A stretch of DNA of 64,000 nt from an uncultured Solibacteraceae bacterium (GTDB lineage Bacteria; Acidobacteriota; Terriglobia; Bryobacterales; Bryobacteraceae): NCBI GenBank assembly GCA_964353255.1, contig CAYGVJ010000007.1, positions 317 to 64,316 of the forward strand. Direction: 5' to 3'. Positions 2,073 through 12,160 of the stretch are shown piece by piece (positions within the stretch are counted from its first letter, which is position 1; the number at the start of each line of letters is the position of its first letter). The notes under the pieces are model-generated. The model saw nothing but the letters and a program-made list of their open reading frames with translations. It was not told where the DNA came from and searched no databases. A program made the position numbers and the translations under genes.

Positions 2073-3125
2073 ATGATTGAAATCGCCAAGGGCAACATAT
2101 TGGAAGCCGACGTCGAGGCACTGGTGAACACCGTGAACTGCGTCGGCTTGATGGGCAAAGGCATCGCGCTTCAGTTCAAGCAGGCATTTCCGGCCAATTT
2201 CAAAGCCTACGAGGCCGCGTGCCGTGCTGGCGAGGTTGTGCCGGGACGGATGTTCATTTTCGACAATGGCAGCCTCATCAACCCGCGGTACGTCATCAAT
2301 TTCCCCACCAAGCGCCACTGGCGCGGGAAGTCGCGCATGGCGGATATTCGGTCCGGGCTGAAAGCGCTCGTCGCCGATGTTCGTAGGCTGGCTGTCCACT
2401 CGGTCGCCGTACCGCCCCTCGGATGCGGGCTTGGGGGATTGGACTGGCGCAAGGTGCGGCCTATCATCGAGCAGGCATTCTCTGAGCTGCCGGACGTTCA
2501 CGTGTTACTGTTCGAGCCCGCAGGGCCGCCGGATGCGAAGGCCATGCCCGTGCGGACCGCGCGGCCTCACATGACTGCGGCGCGTGCACTGTTCATCAAG
2601 TTGATGGACGCCTACGCGGCTCTGGAGTACAGCCGCACCCTGCTGGAGGTGCACAAGCTTGCCTACTTCCTGCAAGAGGCGGGAGAACCACTGCGGCTCA
2701 AGTATGAGGCAGGCCACTACGGCCCTTACGCAGCCAATCTCAATAAGGTGCTGGAGATGATGGAAGGTCACTTCGTCCGCGGCTACGGAGACAGCCAGAA
2801 GCCGAATGCGGAGATCGAGTTGCTGCCCGGCGCCGTTGAGGAGGCAACCGCTTTCCTCGCCGGCAAGTCCGAATCCTTGGGGCGTCTCGGACGCGTTGCG
2901 CGATTGATTGAAGGCTTCGAGACGCCTTACGGCCTGGAACTCCTGGCATCCGTCCATTGGGTGAGTCATCGTGGAGGACCCGGGAGTCACGAGCCCGCCG
3001 CCAATGCGGAGGAAGCCGTTGGCCAGATTCATACATGGAGTCCCCGCAAGCAGCAGGTGTTCAGGCCGGCGCACATCCGCACAGCGTGGAATCGGCTTGA
3101 AGACCAAGGATGGATAGGGGGATAG
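2073..3125 (+). CDS. darG: DarG antitoxin: N-terminal macrodomain plus C-terminal DarT-neutralising extension
   Basis: Macrodomain motifs [29 protein letters not shown] and [10 protein letters not shown], then a ~200-aa C-terminal domain. Sits 14 nt after darT. Confidence 0.85.
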
Positions 3126-3384
3126 CGAATCGCGGGCAGCTCGCTCAGGAAGCGACTGGGGAGCCCGCCACATAACAGGGCAGGTTTCGTCGGCCTTCCG
3201 AGAGGCCAACGCGCGGCAGTACGTGCCGGCCGCCAACCAGGCCTGGGAGGCCCGCTTCCCCGGCATCTTCCATATCAAGGACGGCACGATGCGCACGGGG
3301 GAGATTACCGGCCCCGGCCTCGGCGCTGTATGACGTGGCCCGAAACCTTGAACGGAAACTTGGGTTAAGTGAGTTGAGGAGATT

Positions 3385-4038
3385 GTGAGTATGACGCTTC
3401 GCGCAGTAATCCCGTTCGTCGTCTTCGGCGTCGCCCTGGGCCAGGCCCCGCTGGGGCCGCCGAATAGACCAAGCGTTCCCGGGGGCCCTGGGATGCCGAT
3501 GCTGGTGCCGGACATTGGCGCACTGAAGGCTTACTTGAACCTGACCGATGCGCAGGTTCAGCAGATGCGGCAGGCCGGTGAGCAGGCGCGCAAACAGGCC
3601 GCCGAAAAGGTGAGAACCATTCAGCCGCAGGTCCGGGACAAGCGATTGGCCCTGCGAGACTTGCTCGCCAAAGGCTCCAACGACCCTGCCGCCGTGGGCA
3701 AGCTGGTCCTCGAGATTCAAGCGTTGCAGAAGCAGGTGCGGGAGGGGCGAGAGGCGGTGCGAAACAGCCAGCTTAACGTCTTGACCGCGGAGCAGAAAGC
3801 CAAGTTCAAAGCCATCGAAGACGCTGCGGCGCTGCCGGCGGCGACGCGCGCTGCCATCAGGCTCGGGCTGGTGCCGCGCCCACAAGGCGAACCGGGACTC
3901 GGGATGATGAGGCGGGGCAGAGGCCTGCGCAGACAGGGTGGCACAATGGTGGAACCGGGCCCGGGTATGATGGGACCCGGCGCGGGGCCCCGCCGACGGG
4001 GTCAGGGACTCGGGCCCATGGACGGCGTCGCTCCGTGA
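3385..4038 (+). CDS. Periplasmic Spy/CpxP-family (LTXXQ-motif) protein with a Gly/Pro/Met-rich tail
   Basis: Signal-peptide-like N-terminus, two LTXXQ motifs (LTDAQ, LTAEQ), coiled-coil-like core, GAGGAG Shine-Dalgarno upstream. ATG 3391 is an alternative start. Confidence 0.6.
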   Translation: MSMTLRAVIPFVVFGVALGQAPLGPPNRPSVPGGPGMPMLVPDIGALKAYLNLTDAQVQQMRQAGEQARKQAAEKVRTIQPQVRDKRLALRDLLAKGSNDPAAVGKLVLEIQALQKQVREGREAVRNSQLNVLTAEQKAKFKAIEDAAALPAATRAAIRLGLVPRPQGEPGLGMMRRGRGLRRQGGTMVEPGPGMMGPGAGPRRRGQGLGPMDGVAP

Positions 4039-4078
4039 CCGCTCCATGCGCAGCGCGGCCTCCAGCGCTGCCCGGCTA

Positions 4079-4657
4079 CTATCTGGCGACGCCCACCACC
4101 AGCAGTGCCACCGGGGTCTCGCCCAGCGTCAGGTGCATGGTCCACTCGCCATCGCGGCTCATGCGCAGCCGGGGTGAAGGGCCGGCTGCGCCGGAGACGA
4201 GGCGCAACAGGGCCGGCGCGTCGGTGCGCGAGACCTTGCGGCTCAGGGCTTCGAGGGGCTCGGTTTCCGGAGGGCTTAAGCGCTGGTCGTCCTCTGCTTT
4301 GATCATGAGCAGGGAGTCGCCCGGCAGCGCCCGCAACGTGTAGAGCCCCGGTCCGAAGCCCCGGCCGTAACGATCAGCGCCCGGCGAGGCGAACCGGATG
4401 GCGCCGGCCAAAGCGCCTTCGGGGAGACCTCCAGCCTTCAGCGCCTCTTCCGCGGACGCGCCCTCGGAAACCGGGGCCTCACGCAGCCAGACTTCGCAGA
4501 AGGTGAACCGGTTGGGGTCCACGATCTTCACGCCGCGGCTCTGTAGCGCCTCGCGGATCTCCGCCGCCAGTTGCGCCGGCGGCGCGCCCGTGGGCAGCGC
4601 ACGATAGTCTTGCGCCGCCAGAGCAGCGGTTGCCAGCAGGAACAGCCATGCTCGCAT
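4079..4657 (-). CDS. Secreted hypothetical protein
   Basis: 192-aa ORF with N-terminal signal peptide (MRAWLFLLATAALAAQ); host-like codon bias; no recognisable domain. Confidence 0.5.
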   Translation of the reverse strand: MRAWLFLLATAALAAQDYRALPTGAPPAQLAAEIREALQSRGVKIVDPNRFTFCEVWLREAPVSEGASAEEALKAGGLPEGALAGAIRFASPGADRYGRGFGPGLYTLRALPGDSLLMIKAEDDQRLSPPETEPLEALSRKVSRTDAPALLRLVSGAAGPSPRLRMSRDGEWTMHLTLGETPVALLVVGVAR

Positions 4658-4867
4658 TAGAGTTCTCCCTCACAGGTTGGACGCACGCCAGGCAGCGTCC
4701 GACTCAGGACCGGCGCAAGAGTTCGGTCACGCCTGCCGGAAGGATGGGTGAAAGTCGCCCCGGCCGAGTGGCCCTTTTATTTTCAGCCAGTTGCAAGCCT
4801 TCCCGGCCGTTCCGGCAGAGCCTTCCGGCTGGTTTCCTGCCGGGCGGCTGCTAAGATCTGAAGCGGC

Positions 4868-5092
4868 ATGGACAAGCGAGAACTGGCTGAACGTCTGGCC
4901 CGCAAGGCGCGGCTGCCCAAGCCGGTCGCCGCCGATCAGCTTGACCGGGTGGTCCACGGCATCCTGCGGAGCTTGCGCAAGGGGCAACGGGTTACGCTTC
5001 CGGGCTTGGGCACTTTCGTCCCCGGGAAGAAGCCTACGTTTCGATTCGAGCCGGCCAAGTCCGGCAAGAGTGCCCGCAGCGGGCGAAAATGA
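4868..5092 (+). CDS. Small HU/IHF-fold-like DNA-binding protein (short-arm, HU-CCDC81-like)
   Basis: The pattern ELAERLA...VAADQLDRVVHGILRSLRKGQRVTLPGLGTF matches the helix-helix-strand core of HU but lacks the long beta-arm. Basic tail. Its stop overlaps the next start (ATGA at 5089). Confidence 0.6.
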   Translation: MDKRELAERLARKARLPKPVAADQLDRVVHGILRSLRKGQRVTLPGLGTFVPGKKPTFRFEPAKSGKSARSGRK

Positions 5093-5661
5093 GCGGCGCG
5101 GCAGCCACTTCCAGTGAGCAGGTAGCGGGCATTGTCAAGCGCTGCCTGGAGCGCGGCCGGAGCGTCGAGATCGACGGGCTGGGAGTGTTCCGTCCGGCTG
5201 CCGGGGGCCGGTTCAAGTTCGTCGCCGAGGCTCGCTCGAGCGTGTTCCTGGCTTACGTGCAAGAGGACGCCTCCGCCGCTGAGCGGCTGTACCGGGATTT
5301 CCAAGCCCGGGGCTTTGACCCGTGGCTGGACCGCCAGAAGCTGCTACCCGGCCAGAACTGGCCGCGAGCCATCGAGCAGGCCATCGAGTTCTGTGACTAC
5401 TTCGTGGCGTGCTTCTCGAAGTGCGCCGCCGGCAAGCGCGGCTGGTTCCAGTCCGAGTTGCGCTACGCGCTGGATTGCGCCCGGCGCGTGCCGCTGGGGG
5501 AGACTTACCTGATCCCGGTGCGGTTGGAAGAGTGCCGCGTGCCGGCGCGGATCAGCCAGCAGTGGCAGTACGTGGACCTGTTTCCGGATTGGGACCGGGG
5601 GTTCAGGCGGATCCTGGCGGCGATTCGGCGCCGGGTGAGGCGCTCACCCCGAGCGAGCTAG
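5089..5661 (+). CDS. Fusion protein: N-terminal HU-like segment plus C-terminal TIR domain
   Basis: N-terminus VAGIVKRCLERGRSVEIDGLGVFRP..GRFKFV repeats the HU-like core. Residues ~52-150 match bacterial TIR_2: VFLAYVQEDAS, GFDPWLDRQKLLPGQNW, DYFVACFS, WFQSELRYAL (conserved Glu). Confidence 0.75.
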   Translation: MSGAAATSSEQVAGIVKRCLERGRSVEIDGLGVFRPAAGGRFKFVAEARSSVFLAYVQEDASAAERLYRDFQARGFDPWLDRQKLLPGQNWPRAIEQAIEFCDYFVACFSKCAAGKRGWFQSELRYALDCARRVPLGETYLIPVRLEECRVPARISQQWQYVDLFPDWDRGFRRILAAIRRRVRRSPRAS

Positions 5662-6039
5662 CTTGCGCTTGATCTCCGCGGCGCGCGGGTGGTCTGGCGC
5701 CAGCTCCAGGAACTTGCGGTAGGCTTCCCGCGCGGCCTTCGGGTCCTTCAGTTTGTTCTGGGTCTCCCCCAGCCGCAAGTAGGCCTCGGCGTAGCCGGGG
5801 TTCCATTTGGTGGCTTCGCGGAAGCGACCTGCCGCGGCCTTGTACTTGCCCTTGCGGAAATAGAAGTTGCCCACCTTGAGCTCCTGCTCCGCCTGAAGGG
5901 GATTGAACGAGTACTCCTTGACGGTGAGAGCCTCGTCCTCTTCGGGAGGCTCCTGGACGGGAGGCGCCTTCTGCCGCTGGGCGCAGAGCGCGCCACCGAG
6001 CAGCATCAGGAGCAGGAGGCCACCACCGGCGCGTGCCAC
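5644..6039 (-). CDS. Exported TPR-repeat protein
   Basis: Signal peptide followed by TPR-like repeats (GNFYFRKGKYKAAAGRFREA, PGYAEAYLRLGE, AREAYRKFLELAP). Confidence 0.7.
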   Translation of the reverse strand: MARAGGGLLLLMLLGGALCAQRQKAPPVQEPPEEDEALTVKEYSFNPLQAEQELKVGNFYFRKGKYKAAAGRFREATKWNPGYAEAYLRLGETQNKLKDPKAAREAYRKFLELAPDHPRAAEIKRKLARSG

Positions 6040-6061
6040 AATTCTAGTATAAGGTTCGTCG

Positions 6062-7873
6062 ATGGATCTCCGCGAGAAGGCCGCTCAGTTGCCCGCCCAG
6101 CCCGGCGTCTACCTCTACAAGGACGCCGGCGGAGCGGTCCTCTACGTCGGCAAGGCCAAGGACCTGCGCAGCCGCGTGCGGAGCTACTTCTCCGAAGGAG
6201 GCCGGGCCGACGCGAAGACCGGCACGCTGATCGCCGAAGCCCGCGACGTGGAGTACATCCTGGTGGACAACGAGCGGGAGGCGCTGGCTCTGGAGAACAA
6301 CCTGATCAAGCACTGGCAGCCGCGCTTCAACGTTTTGCTGCGGGATGACAAGACCTACCCTTACATCAAGCTGACCAACGAGCGCTACCCGCGCGTCTAT
6401 GTGACGCGGCGGCTCATCAAGGATGGCTCGACTTACTACGGCCCGTATTTCCCCGGGAACCTGGCGCACCGGCTGGTGCACTTGATTCACCGGTATTTCG
6501 GGTTGCCCTCCTGCAAGGTGGATCTGACGCGGCGCCACGCGCAGCCCTGCCTCCAGCACCACATTCACCGCTGCCACGGCCCCTGCGTGGAGGGGCTGAC
6601 CACGGAGGAAGCCTACGCCCGGGCGGCCCGCCTAGTCCGGCTGTTTCTGGAGGGACGCCACGGGGACCTGCTCGCGGAGCTGCGCGCGGAGATGCAACGC
6701 GCCTCCGACGAGACGCGCTTCGAGCAGGCGGCAGTGCTGCGGGACGTGATCTCGACCATCGAGGAGACCGAGGATAAGCAGAGGATGGCCGCGGCCGCCG
6801 GCGAGGACATAGACATCTTCGGCTGCTACGCCGAACCGCCGCTGGTAGCGGCCAACGTCTTTCACCTGCGCAACGGGCGCATTGTGGACCGCCGCGAGTT
6901 CTTCTGGGAGGACCGGACGGAGTTCGAATCGGCGGAGTTTGTCTCGGGTTTTTTGAAGCAGTTCTATCTCGACCAGCAGTACGTCCCGGCGCGGATTCAC
7001 GTACCGGTGGAGTTCGAGGACCGGGAGGCTTTGGAGGAGGCGCTGTCGGAGCGGCGCGGGCGCAAGGTCGAGATCCACACGCCGCAGCGGGGACCGAAGA
7101 AGGCGCTGCTCGATCTGGCTGAGACCAACGCCCGGCACAGCTTCGAGCAGCGTTTCCGGGTGCTGAAACCCTCGGCGAAGGCGATTCAAGAGGCGCTTCA
7201 GGACATGCTGGGCTTGGCAGAGCCGCCCCGGCGCATCGAGTGCTTCGACATTTCCCATATTCACGGGACGGACACCGTAGCCAGCCTGGTGGTTTGGGAA
7301 AACGGGCGGATGAAGAAGTCGGATTACCGCAAGTTTGTCATCCGCACCGTGGAAGGCAGCGACGACTTCGCGGCCATGCGGGAGGTGATCACGCGGCGGT
7401 ATCGGCGGCTGCAAGAAGAGAAGCGGCCCCTGCCGTCGCTGGTGCTGGTGGACGGCGGCGTGGGTCAACTGCACGCGGCCGCCGAAGCGCTGGAGGGGCT
7501 GGGAATCACGGATCAGGCGCTAGCCGCCATCGCCAAGCGCGAGGAGTGGATTTACGTCTACGGGCAGGAAGACGAGCCGGTGGTGCTGGACCGCTTCTCG
7601 CCGGTGCTCCATCTGGTCCAGAGCGTGCGCGATGAGGCGCACCGGTTCGCCGTGACCTTCCACCGCACGCGGCGCGCGGCGGCGCGGCTGCGCTCGGAGC
7701 TGGAGCAAATCCCTGGGGTGGGAGAGAAGACCGTGCAGAAGCTGCTCAAGCACTTCGGCAGCCTCGAGGGCGTGCGCCAGGCCGCGGAGGAAGAGCTGGC
7801 GGCGGTGGTGGGGAAGGCAGCGGCAAGGCGGGTGCGGGGGTGGCGCGCCGCTCCCGAGGGCGACGTACAATAA
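6062..7873 (+). CDS. uvrC: Excinuclease ABC subunit C
   Basis: GIY-YIG N-terminus (PGVYLYKDAGGAVLYVGKAKDLRSRVRSYF), UVR domain, RNase H-like endonuclease region and C-terminal (HhH)2 (IPGVGEKTVQKLLKHFGSLEGV). The last 10 codons are unrelated to the displaced tail copies. Confidence 0.95.
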   Translation: MDLREKAAQLPAQPGVYLYKDAGGAVLYVGKAKDLRSRVRSYFSEGGRADAKTGTLIAEARDVEYILVDNEREALALENNLIKHWQPRFNVLLRDDKTYPYIKLTNERYPRVYVTRRLIKDGSTYYGPYFPGNLAHRLVHLIHRYFGLPSCKVDLTRRHAQPCLQHHIHRCHGPCVEGLTTEEAYARAARLVRLFLEGRHGDLLAELRAEMQRASDETRFEQAAVLRDVISTIEETEDKQRMAAAAGEDIDIFGCYAEPPLVAANVFHLRNGRIVDRREFFWEDRTEFESAEFVSGFLKQFYLDQQYVPARIHVPVEFEDREALEEALSERRGRKVEIHTPQRGPKKALLDLAETNARHSFEQRFRVLKPSAKAIQEALQDMLGLAEPPRRIECFDISHIHGTDTVASLVVWENGRMKKSDYRKFVIRTVEGSDDFAAMREVITRRYRRLQEEKRPLPSLVLVDGGVGQLHAAAEALEGLGITDQALAAIAKREEWIYVYGQEDEPVVLDRFSPVLHLVQSVRDEAHRFAVTFHRTRRAAARLRSELEQIPGVGEKTVQKLLKHFGSLEGVRQAAEEELAAVVGKAAARRVRGWRAAPEGDVQ

Positions 7874-7877
7874 GGCC

Positions 7878-8117
7878 ATGGGGTTGCCACCGCCGTTCGA
7901 CCGCATCACCATCGACCCGGAGCTCATGAACGGGCAGCCGTGCATCCGCGGCATGCGGCTCACGGTGCGACGCGTGCTTCAGGCGATGGCGCTCTATCCT
8001 GACCGTGCCGAGCTTTTCCGGGAATATCCGGAACTGGAAGAAGAGGACCTGCGGCAGGCCCTGGAGTTTTCGGCCGCCAATCTGGATGACCGCATCGACC
8101 TGCTGAACGTGGCGTGA
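7878..8117 (+). CDS. DUF433-family antitoxin-like protein
   Basis: ITIDPELMNGQPCIRGMRLTVRRVLQ...YPELEEEDLRQALEF matches the DUF433 pattern. Starts 4 nt after the uvrC stop. Confidence 0.8.
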   Translation: MGLPPPFDRITIDPELMNGQPCIRGMRLTVRRVLQAMALYPDRAELFREYPELEEEDLRQALEFSAANLDDRIDLLNVA

Positions 8118-8120
8118 GCC

Positions 8121-8501
8121 GTGATGCACAGGCTCCTACTGGATCAGGGACTGGCGCGCGCGACGGCAGCGATTCTCAGGGAGCGCGGGTGGGATGCCGT
8201 TCATGTCGGTGAGCTCGGCTTGGCCCACGCCTCAGACCGCTCCATCCTGGAGCTGGCGCGGCGTGACGGCCGCATGCTCTGCACGCTGGACGCTGACTTC
8301 CACCAACTGCTGGCTCTGAGTGGGGCAACGTCTCCCTCCGTCATTCGCATCCGGATCGAGGGCTTGCGTGGTCCGGCGCTGGCGCGGCTGCTGGAGCGAG
8401 TCTTGGAAGAGGTGGGGCCTTCGCTGATGGCCGGAATGGCGGTGACGATAACCACCCGTTCGGTCCGGGTGAGGCGGCTTCCGTTGACCAGCGCGAGATA
8501 G
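8121..8501 (+). CDS. DUF5615-family (PIN-like/Mut7-C-like) toxin-like protein
   Basis: LLLDQGL...HVGELGL..ASDRSILELARRDGRMLCTLDADFHQLL pattern. Sits 3 nt after the DUF433 gene, a typical pairing. Confidence 0.8.
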   Translation: MMHRLLLDQGLARATAAILRERGWDAVHVGELGLAHASDRSILELARRDGRMLCTLDADFHQLLALSGATSPSVIRIRIEGLRGPALARLLERVLEEVGPSLMAGMAVTITTRSVRVRRLPLTSAR

Positions 8502-8502
8502 C

Positions 8503-8661
8503 GTGACTGATTCCCCTGGGGTGGGAGAGAAGACCGTGCAGAAACTGCTCAAGCACTTCGGCAGCCTCGAGGGCGTGCGCCAGGCTTCGGAGGAAGATCT
8601 GGCGGCGGTGGTGGGGAAGGCAGCGGCAAGGCGGGTGCGGGGGTTCCACGCGGCGGGATAG
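8503..8661 (+). pseudogene. uvrC: Displaced uvrC 3' tail, copy B (HhH segment plus its own stop, ...RVRGFHAAG*)
   Basis: 8514-8644 aligns to uvrC 7711-7841 with 4 mismatches in 131 nt (hand alignment). The frame is preserved to TAG 8659-8661. Confidence 0.8.
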
Positions 8662-8696
8662 CCTTCTGGGCGTCCCGGTGATACGATCAGGCTGCT

Positions 8697-9956
8697 ATGG
8701 CTGCGAGTCAAGTGAAGCTGTGGGTTGGGGCGCTCTGCCTGGCGACGCTGGCACAGGCTGCCGAACTGCCCGACGAGCGCGTGCGCCGCTACATGGATTA
8801 CAAGTTCGGGATGTTCATCCACTGGGGGCCGTATTCGCTGGCGAGCGTCGAGGCCTCCTGGCCCATCATGCGGCCGGAGCGCAAGGAACGCGGGACGATC
8901 AGCGAAGCCGAGTACCGCTTGCTGCCCACACGGTTCAACCCGGTGAAATTCGAGCCCAAGGCCTGGATCCGGCTAGCCAAGGAGGCGGGCCAGCGCTACA
9001 TGGTCTTCACCAGCAAGCATCATGACGGGTTCGTGATGTTCGATTCGGCCTACACCGACTACAAGATCACTAACACGCCTTACAAGAAGGACCTCGTGGC
9101 GGAACTGGCGGCGGCCTGCCGTGCGGAAGGGATGCCGCTGGGCTTCTACTACTCGCCGCCGGACATGAACCACCCGGGGTACCGCGACACCTCGAAGCCC
9201 TCCAGCGCCAACTGGCGCGGAGAGCCCACGCGCGCGGAATGGGTCACCTACCTGGACTACATGGAGGTGCAGGTGCGGGAGCTGCTCACGCGCTACGGCG
9301 AGCTGGCGGTGGTGTGGTTCGACGGCCTGGGCGGCGGCGCCTACGATGGGCTCCGCTTCCAGAAGCTGGTGCGCGAGCTCCAGCCCAAGGCGGTGATGAA
9401 CAACCGCATCGGGATCGCGGGCGACTTCGAGACCCCCGAGCAGTTCGTCCCCAAGACACTACCCACGCGGCCCTGGGAAACCTGCATGACCATCAACCGC
9501 ACCTGGGCCTACAACCGGAACGACACCAACTACAAGTCCACCACGCAGTTGATCCGGATGCTGATAGAGGTGGCCGGCAAGGGCGGCAATTTCTTGCTGA
9601 ACGTGGGGCCGACGCCGGAGGGCGCCATCCAACCGGAGTTCGAGGAGCGGCTGCGCGGGATCGGCGCCTGGCTGAAGGTGAACGGCGAAGCCATCTACGG
9701 AACGACCGCCGGCCCGCTACAGGATCTGCCCTGGGGCCGCACTACGGCCAAGGGCGGGACCATCTACCTGCACGTGTTTGACTGGCCGAAGGGGACTCTG
9801 GAGGTGGCTGGCCTGCGCGCCCGGGTGCGGCAGGTCTCCCTGCTGGCGGGAGGACAACGCCTGCGGTTCACCCAGAGAGGCGACCGGTTGAGCGTTCAGA
9901 CGCCGGAGCAAGCGCCCGACCCGCACGCTACGGTGCTGGCGTTGCGCACCCGCTGA
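8697..9956 (+). CDS. Exported alpha-L-fucosidase, GH29 family
   Basis: Signal peptide; GH29 motifs YKFGMFIHWGPYS, TSKHHDGF, VVWFDG, GGNFLLNVGP. Confidence 0.85.
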   Translation: MAASQVKLWVGALCLATLAQAAELPDERVRRYMDYKFGMFIHWGPYSLASVEASWPIMRPERKERGTISEAEYRLLPTRFNPVKFEPKAWIRLAKEAGQRYMVFTSKHHDGFVMFDSAYTDYKITNTPYKKDLVAELAAACRAEGMPLGFYYSPPDMNHPGYRDTSKPSSANWRGEPTRAEWVTYLDYMEVQVRELLTRYGELAVVWFDGLGGGAYDGLRFQKLVRELQPKAVMNNRIGIAGDFETPEQFVPKTLPTRPWETCMTINRTWAYNRNDTNYKSTTQLIRMLIEVAGKGGNFLLNVGPTPEGAIQPEFEERLRGIGAWLKVNGEAIYGTTAGPLQDLPWGRTTAKGGTIYLHVFDWPKGTLEVAGLRARVRQVSLLAGGQRLRFTQRGDRLSVQTPEQAPDPHATVLALRTR

Positions 9957-10172: not shown

Positions 10173-11207
10173 ATGAAAAGGCACAACCTGCCCGTGCTCC
10201 ACGCGGCCATAGCGGGCTTGCGCCGGACGACGGGCCTTACGGCCCGGATCCTCGCCCAGGAGCCGCTCACTCCCGCCGGTCGTGCGGATGCGGTGCTCGA
10301 AATCGAGGCAGGTGGCCACGCGTATCGCTTTGTCGCCGAGGTGAAGGTTGTCGATCGGTTCGAGACTCCCGCCCAGGTGAAGAGGCGGTGGGCCGGCCCA
10401 GACGCCGTCCCGATTCTGGTGGCGCCATGCCTCACGCGCGATGCGGCTCAACGTTGCCGAGAACTGCGCTTAGCCTTCATAGACACGGCGGGCAATACTT
10501 ACCTCGAAGGCCCCGGACTTCTGATCTGGGTCGTCGGTCAACCCCATCCGATCGAACTGAAGCGACAACGGTTTCGGGCGCTCAACCCGGCAGGACTCCA
10601 GGTCACCTTCGCGCTACTGTGCCGTCTGGACCTTATTCAAAGCACTTATCGCGAGATCGCCCGAGCGGCAAACGTGGCGCTGGGAACGGTCGGACCTGCG
10701 ATCAAGGATCTTGAGGCCCGCGGTTTCATTCGGTGGGCGCGCAGCGGAGCACGGCGAGTTGTCGATCCTCGCCGGCTCCTAGAGGAATGGGTGACCTATT
10801 ACCATACGACCCTGCGCCCGAAACTGAATCCACGACGTTTCGACGCAGATACGGACTCCTTAGAGAAGGCGGACCTCAAGGCGTACGACGCGTACTGGGG
10901 AGGAGAGGTTGCGGCGGACAAGCTCACGCACATGCTGAAACCGGCCACGTTCACGATCTATGCCCGCGAACTGATTACCCGCCTAGTTTTGGGCCAACGC
11001 TTGCGTGCACGCGCAGGCGGCCGGATCGAAGTTCTCGACGCGTTCTGGAACTTCGCCGCGGACCCGGGCCATCCCGACGTCGTGCCTCCGGTGCTTGCCT
11101 ACGCGGACCTTCTCGCGACGCAGGACGGCCGTAACATCGAGGCGGCGAAGCTCATCTATGACCAACTTGTCGAACCCGCGTTTCATCGTGCCGGTCAAGC
11201 CGGTTGA
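10173..11207 (+). CDS. AbiEi-family type IV TA antitoxin / transcriptional regulator with an extra N-terminal domain
   Basis: Central wHTH (STYREIARAANVALGTVGPAIKDLEARGFI) and an AbiEi-type C-terminal region (LLEEWVTYY...LRPKL...YWGGEVAADKLT). AGGAGGG Shine-Dalgarno upstream. Followed by an NTase gene. Confidence 0.65.
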   Translation: MKRHNLPVLHAAIAGLRRTTGLTARILAQEPLTPAGRADAVLEIEAGGHAYRFVAEVKVVDRFETPAQVKRRWAGPDAVPILVAPCLTRDAAQRCRELRLAFIDTAGNTYLEGPGLLIWVVGQPHPIELKRQRFRALNPAGLQVTFALLCRLDLIQSTYREIARAANVALGTVGPAIKDLEARGFIRWARSGARRVVDPRRLLEEWVTYYHTTLRPKLNPRRFDADTDSLEKADLKAYDAYWGGEVAADKLTHMLKPATFTIYARELITRLVLGQRLRARAGGRIEVLDAFWNFAADPGHPDVVPPVLAYADLLATQDGRNIEAAKLIYDQLVEPAFHRAGQAG

Positions 11208-12033
11208 TCCACTCACGGGTCGCGTACTTCGTCGGGTAGATCAAGCCGCGGCGGCGTGTGGCTCGCGATGCTTCGTGGCGGGCGCTATGGCGCGAGACTT
11301 GGTCTTGGTGAACGCCTTCGGGCTGCCGCCCGGCCGGGCGACCAGGGACATTGATTTCGGCATTGCGGTCGAGAGCTGGGAACAGTTTCAGACGCTCAGG
11401 GCCAACCTGATTGAGACCGGCCAGTTCGACGCCGCGCCGCGGGATGCCCGCCGACTGTACTGGAAAGACCCGGACGCCGAAGTCGCCACTCCCATTGACC
11501 TCATTCCCTTTGGCGGAGTCACGTCTGAGGACAAGACCATCGCCTGGCCTCCAAACCGGGATTTCGTGATGAACGTGGCCGGATTCGAGGAGGCGTTGGA
11601 GTCCGCAATCGAGCTGCGAATCGAAGACGACCTCGTCGTCTCAGTAGCGTCAATTCCGGGACTCACCGTTCTGAAACTGATCGCTTGGCAGGATCGCCGG
11701 AGTAGGAACAACCAGGACGCGGCAGATCTCATTCGCCTCCTGGAGTACTACGCGGAGGCCGGGAATCTGGATCGCCTCTACGAACAGGAGATGCTTCTGC
11801 TCGAGACTGCTGGTTTCGACCTGGAGCTGGCGGGAGCACAGCTATTGGGGCGCGATGCGGCTCGCATCTGCCAAGCGGCGACACGGCAGCAGGTTTCCGC
11901 TCTTCTCAGTTCGGAACCGCTTGTCGACCAACTGATCGTCCAAATGGACCGAACAGGATTCAGCGAAGACCTGCAAACGGAACGGATCTCCGGCCTCTTG
12001 AGACGGTTCTGTCAGGGTTTCCTCGGCGCTTGA
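11158..12033 (+). CDS. AbiEii/AbiGii-like nucleotidyltransferase toxin
   Basis: NTase signature FVAGAMARDLVL...GRATRDIDFGIAV and a helical C-terminal domain. Overlaps the AbiEi-like gene. The start is uncertain (ATG 11158 or GTG 11188); the longer 11005 frame overlaps AbiEi implausibly. Confidence 0.7.
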   Translation: MTNLSNPRFIVPVKPVDPLTGRVLRRVDQAAAACGSRCFVAGAMARDLVLVNAFGLPPGRATRDIDFGIAVESWEQFQTLRANLIETGQFDAAPRDARRLYWKDPDAEVATPIDLIPFGGVTSEDKTIAWPPNRDFVMNVAGFEEALESAIELRIEDDLVVSVASIPGLTVLKLIAWQDRRSRNNQDAADLIRLLEYYAEAGNLDRLYEQEMLLLETAGFDLELAGAQLLGRDAARICQAATRQQVSALLSSEPLVDQLIVQMDRTGFSEDLQTERISGLLRRFCQGFLGA

Positions 12034-12043
12034 TTGTGCTGCG

Positions 12044-12160
12044 CCGGTGCTGCACCTGGTCCAGAGCGTGCGCGATGAGGCGCGCCGGCTCGCGGCGACC
12101 TTCGACCGCACGCGGCGGGAGGCGGCGCGGCGGGTCAAGGGGTTCTACGAGCCTGCCTGA
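12044..12160 (+). pseudogene. uvrC: Displaced uvrC tail, copy C (older, HhH segment deleted; ...RTRREAARRVKGFYEPA*)
   Basis: 12044-12133 aligns to uvrC 7601-7690 with about 10 mismatches in 90 nt (PVLHLVQSVRDEA...). It then joins directly to a terminal peptide resembling copy B. Confidence 0.75.

Follow-up and report, generated by a model that had tools for sequence, protein, structure and literature searches.

The window analyzed here is a 64,000-nucleotide stretch of contig CAYGVJ010000007.1 from an uncultured Solibacteraceae bacterium, and our subject is a pair of overlapping genes on its forward strand. The first, an open reading frame (ORF) of 74 aa with an ATG start (4868..5092), encodes a very basic, arm-less protein of the HU fold and is called HU74; the second, also opening with ATG, encodes 190 aa (5089..5661) and is called HU-TIR. 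The stop codon of HU74 and the start codon of HU-TIR share the sequence ATGA (5089..5092), an arrangement that suggests translational coupling. Within HU-TIR, a half-HU module (aa 1–50; 5089..5238) precedes a TIR domain (aa 51–185); positions 5239..5661 take in this domain, a short basic tail at the C terminus, and the stop codon. Public annotation names the two products "HU family DNA-binding protein" and "TIR domain-containing protein," and nothing more. With a probability of roughly one half, we read the pair as a co-translated complex of two subunits, lineage-fixed in the soil-acidobacterial order Bryobacterales, whose HU-type unit would tether the TIR NADase or gate it.

A small HU-type protein and a half-HU–TIR fusion

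HU74 matches the Bac_DNA_binding profile (PF00216) at 34.9 bits, above the cut-off of 22.4, with aa 1–55 covering profile positions 1–55 of 90; because the match ends at position 55, the protein lacks the β-arm and the C-terminal helix. A profile of the family (92 members) retrieves solved HU-β structures from the PDB over positions 1–60 (E = 6.7e-10), and HU-CCDC81_bac_2 (PF18175), the model of an arm-truncated HU clade, scores HU74 at 30.3 bits, under its cut-off of 35. The AlphaFold2 (AF2) monomer has helices at 3–13 and 20–37 and strands at 42–44, 48–52, and 58–61—an α1-α2-β1-β2-β3 order followed by a basic tail—and the best 50 Foldseek matches of this model are all HU/IHF chains. P45, G46, L47, G48, and F50, around the G-F/L-G-x-F turn, are invariant in the family and Lys3 is conserved. 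Family members span 58–79 aa and carry a mean net charge of +8 (isoelectric point 10.9), which makes them more basic than Escherichia coli HU-β; the C-terminal tail of 14–20 residues is basic and variable, conserved in charge only and not in sequence or length. HU74 has neither the β-ribbon arms, with their arginines and intercalating proline, nor the last helix. By profile and topology, then, HU74 is assigned to the HU superfamily while failing its arm and helix-3 features. Proteins of the HU74 family turned up in the Bryobacterales lineage only.

The N terminus of HU-TIR carries a second, shorter version of this fold. Residues 9–48 form a partial HU fold without helix 1: AF2 predicts a helix at aa 9–21 and strands at 26–28, 32–37, and 41–46, with a predicted local distance difference test (pLDDT) score of ~80, and the GLGxF turn is invariant in the module. 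Alignment of the N-terminal profile with the HU74 family profile by hhalign gives a probability of 96.4% (E = 1.2e-9) and pairs columns 16–48 with columns 32–64 of HU74, a stretch that runs from the end of helix 2 across the short sheet. Inside the window, tblastn likewise aligns HU74 aa 21–60 with positions 5101–5220 (35% identity, E = 0.002). PF18175 gives sub-threshold matches in 34/34 HU-TIR N termini (13.5 to 16.7 bits; best E = 5e-6) and PF00216 matches 25 of these 34, the Pfam matches beginning at profile position 26–28; the best PDB match of the N-terminal profile is single-chain IHF (E = 0.0011). The sequence 5′ of the HU-TIR start is HU74 coding sequence, in frames that differ from locus to locus. 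Profiles and fold prediction thus agree in identifying the segment as an HU-derived half domain whose helix 1 is not encoded.

The half-HU module is confined to this family as far as a profile search with the module alone can tell, which returned only fragments of the same family and no other architecture carrying it. Three longer representatives that looked like carriers, with matches seeming to start at positions 10–14 (P0299, P0319, and P0356), lack any HU segment and are Trypsin-TIR-FGE, TIR-TPR-TIR, and ParA-like-TIR proteins. We reject a programmed frameshift or read-through yielding a tandem-HU-TIR polypeptide, since the inter-gene frame varies among orthologues (−4, −14, −17, 0, +12, −1, and others). 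One metagenomic cluster representative of 200 aa (P0336) does join the N-terminal part of HU74, through an unrelated linker, to the half-HU and the start of the TIR domain; it is most likely a sequencing or assembly frameshift rather than a natural tandem-HU-TIR fusion.

The remainder of HU-TIR has the marks of a canonical TIR domain. Residues 52–176 match TIR_2 (PF13676) at 95.3 bits (cut-off 28), and the protein also matches TIR (PF01582) at 30.7 bits (cut-off 21.3). The AF2 model, with an overall pLDDT of 77, finds as its best Foldseek matches SPARTA TIR-APAZ, Hydra TRR-2, SARM1, AbTir, and MyD88, at probability 1.0 for the SPARTA, SARM1, AbTir, and MyD88 TIRs; the HU-TIR family profile retrieves SPARTA TIR-APAZ chains at E = 2e-7, with a TIR identity of only ~20%. 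The putative catalytic glutamate, Glu123 (helix αC, in WFQSELRYAL; codon at 5455..5457), is invariant across 102 family sequences and lies opposite Glu77 of Crt TIR-APAZ in the profile alignment; the E77A change in that protein abolishes NADase activity (PMC9097488). In the BB-loop motif LLPGQNWPR (aa 85–93; 5341..5367), G88, Q89, N90, W91, and R93 are invariant across the same 102 sequences and L85, L86, P87, and P92 are conserved at ≥90%; the motif also recurs in TIR relatives of other architectures. The polypeptide ends 5–15 residues past the TIR domain. Through this domain HU-TIR has thousands of relatives, and its TIR subfamily comprises 2298 representative clusters at E ≤ 1e-30, elsewhere fused to many other domains. 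From these matches we regard HU-TIR as a bona fide TIR_2 protein, and NAD+-cleaving chemistry as likely.

These results largely uphold an initial annotation of the locus, which had been made from the letters and ORF translations alone. It had described ORFs of 74 and 190 aa overlapping by ATGA, which the coordinates confirm; an HU/IHF-like fold with a reduced arm in the first product; and a TIR domain retaining its conserved glutamate in the second. Profile searches return HU/IHF-like matches for both N-terminal segments, and Foldseek places HU74 among HU/IHF proteins and HU-TIR among TIR domains. Its further claim that the HU-TIR N terminus repeats the HU core survives as homology and needs narrowing as structure: the fold there is partial, with one helix, three short strands, and no helix 1.

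Conservation, expression signals, and genomic setting

Full-length HU-TIR orthologues (53 to 75% identity) occur in 58 species-representative genomes, nearly all labeled Bryobacterales, Bryobacteraceae, or Solibacteraceae. In 57 of the 58 loci the gene immediately upstream is an HU74 orthologue, and in the remaining one the contig breaks off, so that the partner is present in 57/57 informative cases; a small HU gene also overlaps the start of two distant HU-TIR relatives (P0254 and P0259). Of 55 loci, 54 space the two genes tightly, between −38 and +19 nt, the single outlier being +53; the commonest value is −4 (17 loci). The ratio of nonsynonymous to synonymous substitution rates (dN/dS) falls between 0.03 and 0.28 over both genes (0.03 to 0.26 for HU74) in 14 close pairs, indicating purifying selection. 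Given the orthologues in 58 genomes and these ratios, HU74 and HU-TIR are genuine genes.

The two genes also diverge together. Mean pairwise identity is 0.73 for UvrC, 0.58 for the neighboring TPR protein, 0.57 for HU-TIR, and 0.48 for HU74; the divergence of HU74 correlates with that of HU-TIR at a Spearman coefficient of 0.80, and that of either with UvrC at ~0.4. In one subclade of loci (L037, L042, L044–L053, and L056), HU74 lacks the third strand (F-x-F motif), is only 58–68 aa long, and shows an AAD-to-ARD replacement along with further clade-specific changes; in the same loci, the HU-TIR N terminus has Cys19 replaced by Ala and one loop shortened. These paired changes, drawn from ~55 pairs, may represent compensatory co-variation.

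In the window the pair forms a stand-alone bicistronic unit. The gene upstream of HU74 (4079..4657) is divergent and separated by a 210-nt spacer. Downstream, a gene for a 131-aa protein with TPR Pfam matches (5644..6039, reverse strand) converges on the pair, its 3′ end overlapping that of HU-TIR by 18 nt, and is followed by uvrC (6062..7873, forward strand); we assign neither neighbor a functional part. The TPR protein has a hydrophobic N terminus resembling a signal peptide and a YfiO/BamD-like match near threshold.

Upstream of HU74, the orthologous loci share a short element. In 36 of 56 loci the HU74 start codon is preceded at 7–11 nt (mode 9) by the sequence TGnTAnnnT, and in 51 of 56 by the shorter TAnnnT at this place, against a background of 2 in 336 windows of 25 nt taken further upstream. 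In the window the element reads TGC-TAAGAT (4849..4857, forward strand), 10 nt upstream of the ATG. A Shine–Dalgarno sequence is not consistent upstream of HU74 orthologues. We infer that TGnTAnnnT acts as an extended −10 promoter giving a leaderless or near-leaderless mRNA. A scan for the σ70 −35/−10 consensus, which needs a −35 element, found no promoter; a scan for intrinsic terminators found none, and an Rfam search of 3000–9000 gave no match at E ≤ 0.1. Reading of the aligned upstream regions, without a dedicated search, brought no palindromic operator to notice.

Gene order around the pair was followed by tblastn searches of the window proteins against the 58 orthologous loci. The TPR gene lies downstream, between the pair and uvrC, in 44 of them, and uvrC (51 to 87% identity) in 43. 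At least 6 loci have the pair separated from uvrC yet kept together. A functional coupling of the pair to uvrC is not established: the convergent TPR gene intervenes, and several subclades have lost the adjacency but kept the pair. Crude gene clustering reveals sub-lineage synteny on both sides, involving housekeeping-type genes; on reading their sequences, we take these to be metallophosphoesterases, a cysteine-synthase-like protein, a probable Rrf2-type regulator, an oxoprolinase-like protein, and a large membrane protein that presumably resembles spermidine synthase. Among the 58 loci, no known defense gene is conserved alongside the pair. No relative was found on IMG/VR viral contigs, and a plasmid search gave TIR-domain-only matches and no full-length copy. 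This distribution argues that the pair is vertically inherited and lineage-fixed in the order Bryobacterales, not a mobile cassette.

One metagenome-assembled genome, CAWIHA01 (MFD03726.bin.1.141; L023 and L031), contains the whole HU74/HU-TIR/TPR/uvrC block twice, in differing copies on different contigs. The duplication takes in uvrC as well, which points to a mixed bin more than to a pair of paralogues.

The window differs from the orthologous loci in the modules that lie near the pair. Upstream lie DarT (1388–2059; PF14487, 186 bits) and DarG (2073–3125; macro domain), preceded by a 460-aa ORF (9–1391) that has no Pfam match and whose end overlaps the DarT start; the DarTG locus may include this ORF as its third component. 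Downstream, the 3′ end of uvrC is present in three copies (7599–7851, 8494–8670, and 12029–12131): positions 7711–7851 and 8514–8654 match at 94%, and 7599–7688 and 12042–12131 at 90%, the remnants encoding UvrC aa 544–600 and aa 509–542. They bracket a DUF433/DUF5615 (PIN-like) pair at 7878–8501 and, further on, a block made up of a 419-aa ORF (8697–9956), which from its sequence we take to be a fucosidase, and an AbiEi/AbiEii pair (10173–12033). The AbiEi (10173–11207) and AbiEii (11005–12033) ORFs overlap by ~200 nt; since Pfam matches AbiEii from aa 93 onward only, the true AbiEii start probably lies downstream of the listed one. The arrangement suggests nested integration events, with the 3′ end of uvrC as both their target and the sequence they restore. 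The 460-aa ORF, the fucosidase ORF, and, as an internal control, DarT, DarG, the DUF433/DUF5615 pair, and AbiE were each found in 0 of the 58 orthologous loci.

Several further statements of the initial annotation can be judged against this survey. The coupled arrangement of the two genes is borne out by the conserved spacing, DarTG does lie 1.7 kb from the pair, and the duplicated uvrC 3′-end remnants flanking inserted modules agree with its insertion hotspot. Its placing of the pair in a defense island is not supported: the pair is syntenic and vertical among housekeeping neighbors, DarTG is absent from 58/58 loci, PADLOC assigns no system, and neither a viral copy nor a full-length plasmid copy was found. 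The annotation had also counted partner loss together with housekeeping contexts as evidence against its idea; the orthologues do sit in housekeeping contexts, and they retain the partner.

Proposed mechanism and competing explanations

In the model we favor, the extended −10 element is probably the promoter of a bicistronic mRNA that is nearly leaderless, and the stop/start overlap would couple translation so that both proteins are made together. HU74 would supply an HU fold that has lost its DNA-embracing arms and is strongly basic, and HU-TIR the second half of an HU fold only (helix 2 and a short sheet). Because a half-HU alone cannot build an HU body, HU-TIR is predicted to pair with HU74 and so complete it. 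Sequence relationships and the analogy with split HU-CCDC81 operons (PMC5499826) make a physical HU74:HU-TIR complex probable. This HU-type unit would serve as a dimerization, tethering, and regulatory module for a catalytically competent TIR domain, most likely docking it on nucleic acid by way of the basic HU74 surface and tail (with the conserved Lys3) despite the missing arms; on sequence features, whether the complex binds nucleic acid could go either way.

TIR NADases such as SPARTA, AbTir, and SARM1 need TIR–TIR assembly. A 1:1 heterodimer would accordingly be expected to hold the TIR domain inactive, and NAD+ cleavage would begin only once several heterodimers sit side by side and permit TIR–TIR contacts. 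The pair would then act as a lineage-fixed switch for stress, DNA state, or immunity, not as mobile defense cargo. The heterodimeric sensor of DNA or DNA lesions gating the TIR domain that the initial annotation put forward is a reasonable candidate mechanism.

A number of observations weigh against this reading. The HU74 monomer model has a low-confidence pLDDT of 61, which is no surprise for an obligate-dimer fold. Because HU-TIR has no HU helix 1, the two proteins cannot assemble a canonical four-helix HU body, and both partners are without the β-arms, intercalating proline, and arm arginines that define HU DNA binding; the HU-CCDC81 domains, whose arms are truncated, have been proposed to bind proteins rather than DNA. 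A conserved glutamate alone is no proof of NADase activity, the "core" status of the pair is read from synteny, and the flanks of the pair in the window hold toxin–antitoxin and defense modules, which would at least suit an immune role. The weakest part of the reading is what the pair does biologically. Core-like behavior argues against ordinary mobile defense cargo and against a typical toxin–antitoxin system, and it is in line with a switch that is either immune and lineage-fixed or endogenous and responsive to stress or DNA state.

The endogenous alternative can be put more specifically. An arm-less HU heterodimer might load the TIR domain onto chromosomal DNA, where TIR–TIR assembly would produce NAD+ cleavage or a nucleotide signal reporting the state of the cell's own DNA (damage, single-stranded gaps, or compaction), a housekeeping role outside immunity. 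We hold this as a tentative possibility; if true, a bacterial TIR domain, kept beside uvrC in most Bryobacterales, would have been put to non-immune, housekeeping use.

A role in anti-phage abortive infection, fixed in Bryobacterales, is unlikely in our estimation. The HU-like heterodimer would here sense phage DNA or a phage-induced DNA structure and trigger TIR oligomerization and NAD+ depletion. The nearest solved TIR relatives, SPARTA TIR-APAZ and AbTir, are indeed defense effectors, a nucleic-acid-binding partner encoded beside a TIR protein follows the logic of SPARTA, and in the window the pair sits between DarTG and toxin–antitoxin insertions. Partial PADLOC and NCBIfam matches to pAgo-TIR, SAVED-TIR, ThsB, and retron-TIR point the same way, but they cover the TIR domain only, fall far under their cut-offs (29.7 against 220 bits), and identify no known system. 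Vertical inheritance among housekeeping neighbors in 58 species with no known defense gene kept alongside, absence from IMG/VR, and the lack of a full-length plasmid copy all speak against it, as does slow, purifying evolution without the diversification typical of conflict sensors.

Quite unlikely is a domesticated pair resembling type II toxin–antitoxin systems, in which HU74 would be a DNA-binding antitoxin and autorepressor that caps the half-HU of a TIR toxin or acts through its tail, its loss leading to TIR self-association and NAD+ depletion. The gene order—a small DNA-binding-fold protein with a disordered tail upstream, a larger enzyme downstream, and a stop/start overlap—suits it, as do the strict co-occurrence and co-variation of the two proteins and the conserved promoter element at the operon start, which could be an autoregulation site. 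However, the pair is single-copy as far as visible, syntenic, and order-wide rather than patchy or mobile (the sole genome with two copies being the probable mixed bin), the reading of upstream regions noted above, itself no dedicated search, showed no palindromic operator, and conservation of the tail in charge only is easier to reconcile with non-specific nucleic-acid binding than with specific blocking of an active site. If the pair were an ordinary abortive-infection or toxin–antitoxin module, the gain would be smaller: one more type of sensor for TIR effectors.

Very improbable, finally, is the absence of any functional complex, with HU74 a minor nucleoid protein, the HU-TIR N terminus a remnant serving self-dimerization or the TIR domain a non-enzymatic scaffold, and adjacency a product of duplication and fusion: homology of the two HU-like segments makes a local duplication plausible and AbTir-type bacterial TIR proteins with small N-terminal dimerization domains offer a precedent, but the linkage outlasts rearrangements away from uvrC, tight coupling is retained in 54/55 loci, the divergence correlation between the two proteins is twice that of either with UvrC, and the half-HU was found in no other architecture and the HU74 family only in this lineage.

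Comparison with known systems

Bacterial TIR domains have been studied almost solely as mobile immune effectors. HU-TIR instead behaves like an order-wide core gene, with stable synteny, purifying selection, and a pace of change about that of its TPR neighbor. The pair is thus a concrete candidate for asking whether bacterial TIR domains have lineage-fixed or physiological roles, and whether an HU-type dimer can be an assembly platform that switches on a TIR NADase.

The pair matched no defense system in PADLOC, and membership in Thoeris, SPARTA, CBASS, Pycsar, or retron systems is rejected, the matches being partial and limited to the TIR domain. For Thoeris, ThsB models give partial matches only (E = 0.001 to 0.03; ThcB4, 29.7 bits against a cut-off of 220), and an adjacent ThsA effector (SIR2/Macro-SLOG) is missing, the conserved neighbors being the TPR protein and uvrC. 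Type II toxin–antitoxin systems share the overlapping order of a small DNA-binding-fold gene followed by an enzyme gene, but the present pair is syntenic, apparently single-copy, and order-wide, and its two proteins share a homologous half-domain.

AbTir, TcpB/BtpA, and PdTIR resemble HU-TIR in size and in the order of a short N-terminal oligomerization module and a C-terminal TIR domain with a catalytic glutamate, and AbTir and PdTIR are among its structural or sequence matches. Their N-terminal domain is a coiled coil rather than an HU half-fold, and they have no obligatory small partner gene. Canonical HU/IHF proteins (PF00216) share with HU74 the α1-α2-β topology, the G-x-G-x-F turn, the conserved Lys3, and a basic character; HU74 differs in lacking the arms, their proline and arginines, and the C-terminal helix, at 58–79 aa against ~90.

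SPARTA (short pAgo with TIR-APAZ) provides the closest solved TIR domain by both sequence profile and fold, with its catalytic glutamate aligned to Glu123. It too consists of two genes, the nucleic-acid-binding partner heterodimerizing with the TIR protein and oligomerization turning on the NADase, and we propose that the HU74/HU-TIR pair works in a like manner. SPARTA is a sporadic defense system, whereas the pair has order-wide synteny, and neither an APAZ domain nor an Argonaute/pAgo was found in HU-TIR, the window flanks, or the orthologous loci.

The nearest precedent for the HU part comes from Burroughs, Kaur, Zhang, and Aravind (2017; PMC5499826), who described bacterial HU-CCDC81 operons combining a stand-alone HU with a single-HU fusion protein and predicted that the two heterodimerize. 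The bacterial architecture there comprises one or more HU domains, a disordered linker, a transmembrane segment, and LysM or SPOR (PMC5499826). Shared with the pair are the truncated β-hairpin tip and the small stand-alone HU gene beside a single-HU fusion gene; both window proteins also match PF18175, in each case below the Pfam cut-off (HU74 at 30.3 against 35 bits). The differences are that in the present pair HU is fused to a TIR enzyme of the cytoplasm, with no transmembrane, LysM, or SPOR Pfam match in HU-TIR; that the fused HU is only half a domain, without helix 1; and that the setting is Acidobacteriota rather than mainly Bacteroidetes. That paper does not mention TIR, and our literature search found no paper combining a TIR domain with an HU domain and none on an HU-TIR fusion, in keeping with the initial annotation's view of the architecture as undescribed. 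As far as that search shows, a split-HU partner module for a TIR effector, fixed in one bacterial order, is previously undescribed, and it would extend the split-HU operon idea of Burroughs et al. (PMC5499826) from envelope anchors to an enzyme.

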